Source: Escherichia coli
Lineage (GTDB): Bacteria > Pseudomonadota > Gammaproteobacteria > Enterobacterales > Enterobacteriaceae
Assembly (NCBI RefSeq): GCF_048403405.1
Contig: NZ_CP183129.1
DNA length: 64,000 nucleotides
Strand: one strand, 5' to 3'
In this document: positions 36,001 to 39,000 of the stretch, piece after piece
How the letters are laid out: each line of letters begins with the position of its first letter
Numbering within the stretch: position 1 is the first letter of the stretch
Made by a program: the position numbers

Positions 36001-39000
36001 AATCTCTTTCATTACCTCAGATTGATTTTTGATCGATTCGCAATTGGTATCACCAATAACTTCCATTACTGAGGTAATCAAAAGGATAAATGTGGCTGTT
36101 GCGTTTCTGTTTTTCTGGTTTTCCTGGGTCAGGCAAATATTGGTGGTGAAGTTATTAATCTGTTCTTGCTGTTGAATTTCGTCAAAAATTTCCATACTTT
36201 GGCCGATCGCAGCATCAGCATCCATAATGGCTGTATTTAACGATTTCTCAGCTAACGATTTTTTTTGTAATGACAGCGTGAGTGTTTTTTCAGCCGCACT
36301 TTTTTGCGTCACTACTTTATTATATTGCGGATCGCCAGGTTGCAGTTGCGAGAGCTCTTGATTCAATGTGTTGACTTTTTTCTCCAGCGATTGCACCTTT
36401 TTATCGACCGCATTGTAATTATTATTGGCCTGATGCATGATGTCGTCGGCTTTTTGCGCGGAATCTAATGACGATGAGTAAGCGTCACTTAATTCACGAA
36501 ACTTATTATGTGCCATTTCGTGTCGAAGCAGGGTGCTGTCAAGGTTATTATGCAAACGTGTTGTAATATCCTGATCGGCAATGCCTGTTAGATTACCCAA
36601 AATCATTGTCAGGCGGGCATCGTTCGTCTTTGCTGTAGTGGCGTTGTCGGAATCTGAAACCTGTATTGCAGGCGGAGCAAGCATCGGTTTGTTTTCAAGA
36701 CGAGCGCGAATATCGTTATCAAGGGATTTCGGGTTTTTATTAAGCCGCATGGGATCAACTTGCGTTTTGTTGCTGTCCTGCAGTCTTTTTTCCGCATCGC
36801 TATACTGTGTGCGCAATGTTTCGCTGATTTGTTCAAACGTGATCGTTTGTCCCGTAATCGGTGCCGACATAATTCACCTCCTTTTTAAGCTATCATCGGG
36901 TGTAATTAATTCTTTTTTATTTAACTCATGGCAGATGTTTATTCCCATCTAAAATGGCATCAACGGGAAAGTAAGTAATGTGTTTATTGTTATTCTTCTC
37001 ATTTATTTTATCGCCATGGTTATTTTTTAAATCAACCGGGGCTTCCTCATGATATTTCCTGATTAACTCTTCAGGCGTAAAAGAAGAGTTTTTTCCGTTT
37101 ATGTTCATTTTGCCGACTCACTCTGTTTGAACTTCCTCTTCGGTATTGGCTGTCAAGAGTTCAAGATAAGCAGTAGCCATCTCTTTAACTTTTTCATTTT
37201 GGCTGTAGGTTACGACTGTATTAAATAACTCCATGGCCATTTTAGTGTTTTTTAAGCCCATCTGGCATTGGCCCATATAATAAACCAAAGAGAAATCGTT
37301 ATCGGGAGATAGCATTAAACAGATATGATACATGTCGAATGCCTTTTGATAATCTTTCTTCAACTGACAGACGGCGGCATATCCTTTTAAATAGTTATAA
37401 TTTTGGAAATCATAAATACAGAGAAATTTAAAAAAGAGCTCAGCTTCGTCAAGTCTTCCTTTTTCATAAAAGTTATAAGCGTAAGCATAAACGCCTTCAA
37501 GGGTATCCGGAGTAATGCCATGCAGCTCTGCAAGTGTTGCTCCCATACCTAATGCACGTTCGAACTTACTGGCCATTTCTTTATTTTCTTCTAAATCCAG
37601 ATTTGCGCTTTCCATCTCTACTCTCTCCTTTCGAACATTCTTTGTTCAGACTTCACCATTTTTTAGAGGGGGGTGATATCAAAATTCGCTCATTTTTATG
37701 CCCATCCGTTGGGCGTCCTTTTCTGCATTAAAAACAAGTATTGTTTCAATGAGATAAGATTTTCTATGTGATGAAATGAAAACAATGTAGAGGGAAATTC
37801 CTCCACAATCCTGATGAACGGGTGCAATTTTGATTGGAATTTGAAAAAGCAGGTGATTTACTGATGTGCGAGCGTACGTCAGCGGCTGCTGGCCTGAGCG
37901 CGGAGGTGTGCGAAATTCACATATCCGGGCATTCCACCTTACCCAGCGCTTCCCAGTAGTTATTCTGATTATTACGCTCCATCGCCACAATAGCTTCGCG
38001 GATATGTTGTTTGTTACTCTCATCAGACAACATTAATTTTTCCCACGCTTCGTCTGATAATGACGCCTGTGGCGTGCAAATTTTACGTAAATCTTGCAAT
38101 ACCGTGGTCTTTTCTTTTGCCGACTGTAGAGAACTGAATGGCGATTCGGCCTGAGAAATGGCTGGGAAAGTCAGGAATACGGTAATCATGAGTAGCATCG
38201 TTGGCTTCATAGCGGCAACCTTCTACAAATGTGCATCGAATGAAGCATAAGTGTAGTTTGCTTTTGCCGCTCTCATCATGCTGTACGAAAGGTGTTTGCG
38301 TGGTCAGTAAGAAGTGCCAGTTTTATATACCTTTTTCTTCTATTCGATAGCTTTTCGTTTTTTAAATCGGAGTGATCTTGCCATTATAGTCAGTTAACGA
38401 TTAAAAAAAGGATAAAAAAGTGAAACTGACAACACATCATCTACGGGCGGGGGCCGCATTATTACTGGCAGGAATTCTGCTGGCAGGTTGCGACCAGAGC
38501 AACAGCGATGAAAAGCACATTAAAGTGGGCGTTATTAATGGCGCAGAACAAGATGTCGCGGAAGTCGCTAAAAAGGTGGCAAAAGAGAAATATGGCCTCG
38601 ATGTTGAATTGGTAGGATTTAGCGGTTCGTTGCTACCGAACGATGCGACAAATCATGGCGAGCTTGATGCGAACGTCTTCCAGCATCGACCCTTTCTTGA
38701 ACAAGATAATCAGGCGCATGGTTATAAACTGGTAGCGGTGGGAAATACGTTTGTCTTCCCCATGGCGGGTTATTCCAAAAAAATCAAAACCGTGGCGCAA
38801 ATAAAAGAAGGCGCGACAGTGGCGATCCCCAACGACCCGACCAACCTTGGTCGCGCGCTTTTACTGTTGCAAAAAGAGAAGCTAATTACTCTGAAAGAGG
38901 GAAAAGGGTTACTACCTACCGCGCTGGATATAACCGAGAATCCTCGTCATTTGCAGATTATGGAACTCGAGGGGGCGCAGCTCCCGCGCGTACTGGATGA

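Follow-up and report, generated by a model that had tools for sequence, protein, structure and literature searches.

The gap between eicA and eipB in the Escherichia coli eip island holds a 60-aa open reading frame (ORF60) that is, on balance, probably a dispensable and decaying remnant within the eicA-eipBCD operon, one that is not currently maintained as a protein. The ORF is present and is restricted to E. coli, its substitutions are near-neutral, it is recurrently frameshifted, and searches for RNA and promoter signals across its gap returned none. Its descent from an ancestral small gene and its present dispensability are what we infer. We suggest that ORF60 be classed as doubtful or decaying and not counted as a seventh functional eip gene, a distinction that is useful when eip and ETT2 loci are scored for "intactness" in ExPEC lineages.

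The window, by which we mean the whole stretch of 64,000 nt analysed here, contains the E. coli eip (selC-B) island: the gene order matches, and the island lies beside yicS, nlpA and yicL near selC. It is one and the same island as that of EAEC 042 and ST69, for which the available text of the published accounts lists eicA, eipB, eipC, eipD, eilA and eaeX (air, iatC) (Sheikh et al, 2006, via PMC4210603; PMC7058095; PMC11068852). A 601-bp query spanning ORF60 had matches in 733 of 5426 complete E. coli genomes, one of them at 100% identity. The annotated order in that genome is selC, setC, yicL, nlpA, yicS, a SycD/LcrH-family chaperone, a hypothetical protein, a YopB/SseC-family translocon subunit, a second hypothetical protein (EipC), an IpaD/SipD-family tip protein, eilA and iatC.

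We found the Asn/Lys-rich ORF exactly where the initial annotation had placed it, with the same coordinates, strand and composition, and confirmed the 247-bp gap that had been described between a SicA-like and a SipB-like gene (36871-37117; Pfam TPR_3 for the chaperone, T3SSipB/SseC for the translocator). ORF60 takes up most of this gap (Table 1), and its peptide sequence is MNINGKNSSFTPEELIRKYHEEAPVDLKNNHGDKINEKNNNKHITYFPVDAILDGNKHLP. The ORF had also been called unannotated, which is true of the eip literature and not of RefSeq. The available text of the three papers cited above describes six genes and places none between eicA and eipB, whereas RefSeq PGAP includes ORF60, either as a hypothetical protein (WP_001024524.1 in the 100%-identity genome, and allelic accessions) or as a frameshifted pseudogene. 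ORF60 is unnamed rather than unannotated.

Table 1. Features of the eicA-eipB region, in coordinates of the window.
Feature	Coordinates	Strand	Basis or remark
eicA, class II (SycD/LcrH/SicA-type) TPR chaperone, 165 aa	37118..37615	-	Pfam TPR_3, E=2.4e-17; RefSeq SycD/LcrH family chaperone
eicA-ORF60 spacer, 9 nt, eicA TGA to ORF60 ATG	37109..37117	-	Direct reading
ORF60, 60-aa ATG ORF, Asn/Lys-rich	36926..37108	- (operon strand)	RefSeq WP_001024524.1, hypothetical protein
A6 run (T6 on the + strand), ORF60 nucleotides 81-86	37023..37028	-	Site of recurrent A5/A7 frameshift alleles
Untranslated spacer, 55 nt, ORF60 end to eipB ATG	36871..36925	-	Direct reading; holds the eipB Shine-Dalgarno
eipB Shine-Dalgarno AGGAGGTG, strong	36875-36882	-	Inside the 55-nt spacer
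eipB, major translocator (SipB/IpaB/SctE type), 593 aa	35089..36870	-	Pfam T3SSipB and SseC; RefSeq product

ORF60 is longer than expected by chance. A sense ORF of at least 60 codons has a probability of P=0.011 in the gap, as estimated from 5000 dinucleotide-preserving shuffles, and the DNA of ORF60 is 33% GC. Before its start lies a weak Shine-Dalgarno-like GAGTGAG that overlaps the end of eicA. The predicted anti-SD pairing is -4.8 kcal/mol for ORF60, compared with -12.9 for eipB and -8.7 for eicA, and pairing of -4 kcal/mol or lower is reached at 16% of random positions in the island. Translation of ORF60 would be weak, if it takes place at all, and would be carried out by ribosomes that have just terminated at the eicA stop, 9 nt upstream; the predicted product is a disordered Asn/Lys-rich peptide. 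Since eipB is served by a strong ribosome-binding site of its own, 55 nt further on, it would be independent of ORF60.

The substitution pattern of ORF60 is near-neutral, and we detected no sign of selection at the protein level. The pN/pS ratio was ~0.63 in frame and 0.49 and 2.20 in the two control frames, calculated from nine intact alleles that were found partly via protein searches, so that the set is biased toward intact frames. The changes comprise 30 nonsynonymous and 10 synonymous ones (neutral expectation 4.3:1) and fall on codon positions 1, 2 and 3 in the proportion 17/10/13, with no excess at the third position. The E. coli alleles of neighbouring genes gave pN/pS values of 0.06 for eicA, 0.05 for yicS and 0.35 for eipB. 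Variability is highest in the neighbourhood over nucleotides 1-135 of ORF60, where 26% of sites vary. In the 55-nt spacer before eipB, a single site varies among the main alleles and eight of the 55 do once the divergent allele L020 is included. The last 15 residues of the peptide (YFPVDAILD.NKHLP) are kept in all nine intact alleles, the sole change being G55E. Counted separately, the last 48 nt contain three synonymous changes and one nonsynonymous change, and the first 135 nt contain 7 and 29, respectively. The contrast is a hint that the C-terminus is constrained, in counts that are very small and too few to weigh.

The initial annotation had suggested a small protein and looked to conservation of its reading frame in orthologous islands. 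The frame is disrupted: in 17 of 59 E. coli genomes, sampled as full-length hits drawn evenly down a ranking of 734 records, the ORF60 match has a 1-nt length change (short by one in 11, long by one in 6). The frame is intact in ~70% of the sampled genomes and frameshifted in ~29%. The A6 run retains six residues in the intact alleles, is shortened to A5 at four loci (L015, L002, L032 and L033) and is extended to A7 at three (L018, L034 and L035). Six RefSeq copies among these seven loci carry the PGAP label 'frameshifted', and eicA and eipB there have normal protein accessions. The frameshifted products are 34 and 29 aa long, and the frameshifts fall upstream of the conserved C-terminus. The A7 form shares its SNP background with an A6 allele and the A5 form has SNPs of its own; because these backgrounds differ, at least two independent losses of ORF60 have spread. 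In a third eip-type lineage (L006/L007) the gap measures 255 nt and lacks a long sense ORF, and the ORF in the corresponding gap of E. albertii has no detectable similarity to ORF60. Disruption at orthologous loci was the outcome that the initial annotation itself had named as speaking against a conserved small protein.

Searches for relatives of ORF60 returned variants from E. coli only. A word-indexed search of 5.8 billion protein clusters recovered such variants at 78-96% identity, several of them with local frameshifts or truncations, and a HMMER profile scan of 1.84 billion representatives yielded no genuine relatives beyond them. Three marginal HMMER hits (E=1e-4 to 1e-3) were rejected as short patches within long unrelated proteins. 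We found no match to ORF60 in Pfam, none in NCBIfam, where the only hit was a sub-threshold one to HAD (E=0.13), and none among PDB sequences, where hits were obtained only at E>0.3. A scan of genome contigs with EicA for cross-species orthologs returned a single contig, from a contaminated "Collinsella" MAG, and was set aside.

We then compared the gap across related islands. In E. albertii, where EicA is 71% identical to its E. coli counterpart, the gap is 263 nt long and contains a 70-aa ORF (ORF70) that starts in overlap with the chaperone stop (GTGA) and ends 54 nt before eipB. ORF70 has a predicted SD pairing of -8.8 kcal/mol and a length with P=0.007 against shuffles; its relatives form one 97%-identical cluster, and its sequence diversity is too low for selection testing. 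EipB itself is only 28% identical between E. coli and E. albertii, so that fast evolution alone is compatible with function. Locus L010 contains a 94-aa ORF that also overlaps the chaperone stop, with an SD pairing of -11.0 kcal/mol and a length with P=0.002 against shuffles, and its closest relative, L009, has the same ORF, interrupted by an in-frame stop. An 81-aa ORF (ORF81) overlapping the chaperone stop is present in L025. The gaps of L011 (171 nt) and of the Y. enterocolitica locus L024 (121 nt) contain no ORF, and those of L008 and L026 are ~33 nt long. In a neighbour-joining tree of the chaperones, built with no support values, the long-gap loci all fall in one clade, apart from the Shigella-type clade. 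Between lineages, alignment of the gap DNA fails.

Sequence similarity between the E. coli and E. albertii gaps was considered and rejected. The two peptides look alike by eye when their start codons are aligned (MNIN.K and MNSINK), but neither BLASTP nor Smith-Waterman alignment with shuffling gave a significant score, and local alignment of the gap DNA gave z=-0.8. Judged from the sequences, ORF60 and ORF70 correspond in position only.

An alternative that we regard as unlikely, though with some claim to attention, is that ORF60 encodes a fast-evolving functional accessory peptide; in one version it resembles a miniature translocator, binds EicA or is secreted, and has been lost in some clones. 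ORF60 is longer than chance predicts and starts 9 nt past the eicA stop, its C-terminus is invariant in the intact alleles bar one substitution, and its positional counterparts in E. albertii, L025 and L010 have the appearance of real genes, given their stop/start overlaps and, in E. albertii and L010, the SD pairing described above. Some of these ORFs also resemble translocators in sequence. Class II chaperones bind translocators via a P/VxLxxP hexapeptide, represented by 65-PELKAP-70 in IpaB, 58-PELIKP-63 in YopD and 49-VELNAP-54 in PopD (PMC3443056). By this definition the hexapeptide of EipB is PMLAPP, at residues 62-67. ORF70 of E. albertii contains PELIKP at residues 47-52 (chance ~0.05) and ORF81 of L025 contains PTLKKP at residues 50-55, positions similar to those of the motif in translocators (residues 55-70); the L025 translocator itself reads PMLANS. 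The small ORF of L010 aligns with residues 23-85 of the L010 translocator (E=2e-7) and is a paralog of that protein's N-terminus. Duplication of the eipB 5' end as a general origin of the gap was rejected after DNA- and protein-level tests, which supported it in L010 only.

This likeness to the N-terminal chaperone-binding domain of translocators belongs to the E. albertii, L025 and L010 ORFs and not to ORF60, which argues against the accessory peptide in E. coli. The P/VxLxxP motif is absent from ORF60. In BLASTP against EipB it gave only hits with E=0.4 and 8.5, outside the EipB N-terminus, and in Smith-Waterman comparisons with shuffles against seven translocator N-termini the best value (P=0.007) was not significant after multiple testing. 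We also found no significant similarity to the other small gap ORFs after multiple testing. Two borderline candidates, the lineage-3 translocator (P=0.007) and the L010 ORF (P=0.013), were discarded as artefacts of low-complexity N/K sequence and multiple testing. The near-neutral substitutions, the frameshifts upstream of the conserved C-terminus in ~29% of genomes and the weak SD likewise weigh against the accessory peptide. An AF2 model of an EicA-Gly-Ser linker-ORF60 fusion gave pLDDT values of 27-39 over ORF60, with neither a fold nor docking predicted. In the positive control, EipB(1-95), PMLAPP was not confidently docked either, and because this control failed too, the docking proxy cannot count against binding of ORF60 to EicA.

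A bolder form of the same idea, to which we attach little credence, is that ORF60 is the E. coli member of an undescribed class of mini-translocators whose genes, in one SPI-1/Ysa-like clade, sit between those of the class II chaperone and the major translocator. Its members may be short peptides with little beyond a secretion signal at the N-terminus and a segment that binds the chaperone. By filling the groove of the chaperone, or by titrating it, such peptides may adjust the loading of translocators or the transcription that depends on the chaperone; alternatively, they may themselves be secreted. In that case the invariant C-terminus of ORF60, YFPVDAILDGNKHLP, may be a divergent form of the segment that binds the chaperone, and the alleles A5 and A7 may be loss-of-function variants.

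The gap could also be a non-coding regulatory spacer (an internal promoter, an operator, or a 5' UTR for eipB translation or mRNA stability) in which the ORF is incidental. We consider this improbable. Three diverged eip-type lineages retain a gap of ~250-260 nt, with an ORF in it or without one, and the ~100 nt before eipB are less variable than the 5' part of ORF60 among the common alleles and unchanged in the frameshift alleles L015, L018 and L002. However, a scan limited to the sigma-70 consensus detected no sense-strand sigma-70-like promoter, and no terminator was found, in 36871-37117 (-). A scan of the gap for MxiE-box-like sites was also negative. A search against Rfam 15 at E<=1 gave no match in the gap, the only hit being a spurious lncRNA on the opposite strand and outside the gap. 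The predicted fold of the gap RNA was no more stable than expected (z=-0.30), with 66 of 200 shuffles folding equally well or better. The regulatory 5' UTR that the initial annotation had offered as the other possibility is unsupported by these RNA-family, folding, promoter and terminator searches. The eight changes in the 55-nt spacer of L020 and the failure of lineage gaps to align as DNA further argue against a regulatory spacer.

That ORF60 arose purely by chance in an AT-rich spacer, with no coding history, is very improbable: it is an orphan without relatives outside E. coli and has a near-neutral pattern, and the E. coli and E. albertii gaps and peptides are not significantly similar, but the ORFs of E. 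coli, E. albertii and L010 are all longer than shuffles predict (P=0.011, 0.007 and 0.002) and start at the chaperone stop or within 9 nt of it, both Escherichia islands end the ORF 54-55 nt before the translocator ATG, and such repetition of positions and lengths across lineages makes coincidence unlikely.

We therefore return to the decaying remnant as the explanation that we favour. The slot occupied by ORF60 would be a spacer ancestral to one SPI-1/Ysa-like clade, filled in sister lineages by what look like well-coupled small genes and elsewhere by broken remnants only. The points that speak for a relic and not an accident are the length of ORF60, the stop/start-overlapping counterparts in E. 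albertii, L010 and L025, and the confinement of the gap loci to one chaperone clade. Set against the remnant are a length that is unlikely by chance in DNA of 33% GC, the intact frame in ~70% of genomes, the conservation of the C-terminus and the biased set of alleles. In the simplest reading, an ancestral small gene, or at least a spacer, was present in this clade and has repeatedly decayed. The motif-bearing small ORFs of the sister islands are the part deserving attention. If their peptides bind the chaperone, they would add a new layer of control on the availability of class II chaperones in type III secretion.

The eip junction has the same layout as the Shigella-type junctions (ipgC-ipaB and its relatives), in which a class II TPR chaperone gene is followed by the major translocator and then by the minor translocator and tip genes. 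The initial annotation had taken adjacency of chaperone and translocator genes as the norm, and this holds in the relatives compared: the two are 5 nt apart in Shigella, 2 nt in Providencia, 5 nt on an E. marmotae plasmid and 51 nt in Pantoea, and they overlap on a Salmonella plasmid. The comparison covers these five relatives; in SPI-1, sicA and sipB are described as adjacent, as at the Shigella-type junctions. The two groups differ in what lies between the genes: Shigella-type loci have a gap of at most 51 nt, or overlapping genes, with no intervening ORF, whereas the gap in the eip clade is 120-320 nt long.

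Small ORFs lie downstream of the chaperone gene in several related islands (see table). The ORF of L010, a related island, is a paralog of residues 23–85 of that island's own translocator (BLASTP E = 2e-7), and in L009, a close relative of L010, the same ORF is broken by its in-frame stop. In a third related island, L025, the stop codon of the chaperone gene and the 81-aa ORF overlap (ATGA); at residues 50–55 this ORF carries a canonical PTLKKP of the P/VxLxxP type, the hexapeptide by which translocators bind class II chaperones, whereas the translocator downstream has only a degenerate PMLANS.

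Coordinates of the features discussed
Feature	Locus	Position	Remark
81-aa ORF	L025	3004-3249	contig from human gut metagenome
94-aa ORF	L010	3498-3782	
ORF same as that of L010	L009	3502-3783	in-frame stop
70-aa ORF	L003 (E. albertii)	5519-5731	between eicA and eipB orthologs
eipB	window (E. coli)	35089-36870	compared with L003
eipB	L003 (E. albertii)	5786-7561	compared with window
eipB, split	L005	5786-7560	501-aa and 83-aa pieces; one E. albertii genome
eipC	window	33946-35076	
eipC, flagged frameshifted	L018	4226-4602	one E. coli genome, CUVET20-PYO4
rhuM, short pseudogene fragment	L001	4284-4400	adjoins tRNA-Sec (selC)
rhuM, full-length	L003 (E. albertii)	145-1182	place equivalent to L001

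The translocator gene eipB is evolving unusually fast. Identity between E. coli and E. albertii is only 28% for EipB, as against 71% for the adjacent chaperone, and among E. coli 17.6% of eipB sites segregate, with a pN/pS of 0.35; diversifying selection is possibly at work. For eipC, the annotated length varies among E. coli alleles (1131 versus 1152 nt), and a Pfam search with the ortholog returned no match whatever. Signs of decay were seen in main eip genes of some strains.

At the selC border, the short rhuM fragment of L001, a genome 100% identical to a 601-bp query spanning the 60-aa gap ORF, differs from E. albertii, where rhuM is full-length. The E. coli eip island was also found at 98% identity in L002 (JAIJJM010000039.1), part of a MAG labelled 'Collinsella sp.', and this copy includes the A5 frameshift allele, in which one A is lost from the A6 run of the 60-aa gap ORF. 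The contig is almost certainly a binning contaminant of its MAG.

The 70-aa ORF of E. albertii, present likewise in L004 and L005, overlaps the chaperone stop codon (GTGA) and is preceded by a strong Shine–Dalgarno sequence (−8.8 kcal/mol). Its relatives form one cluster only, 97% identical. The ORF contains PELIKP, letter for letter the SycD-binding hexapeptide of YopD.
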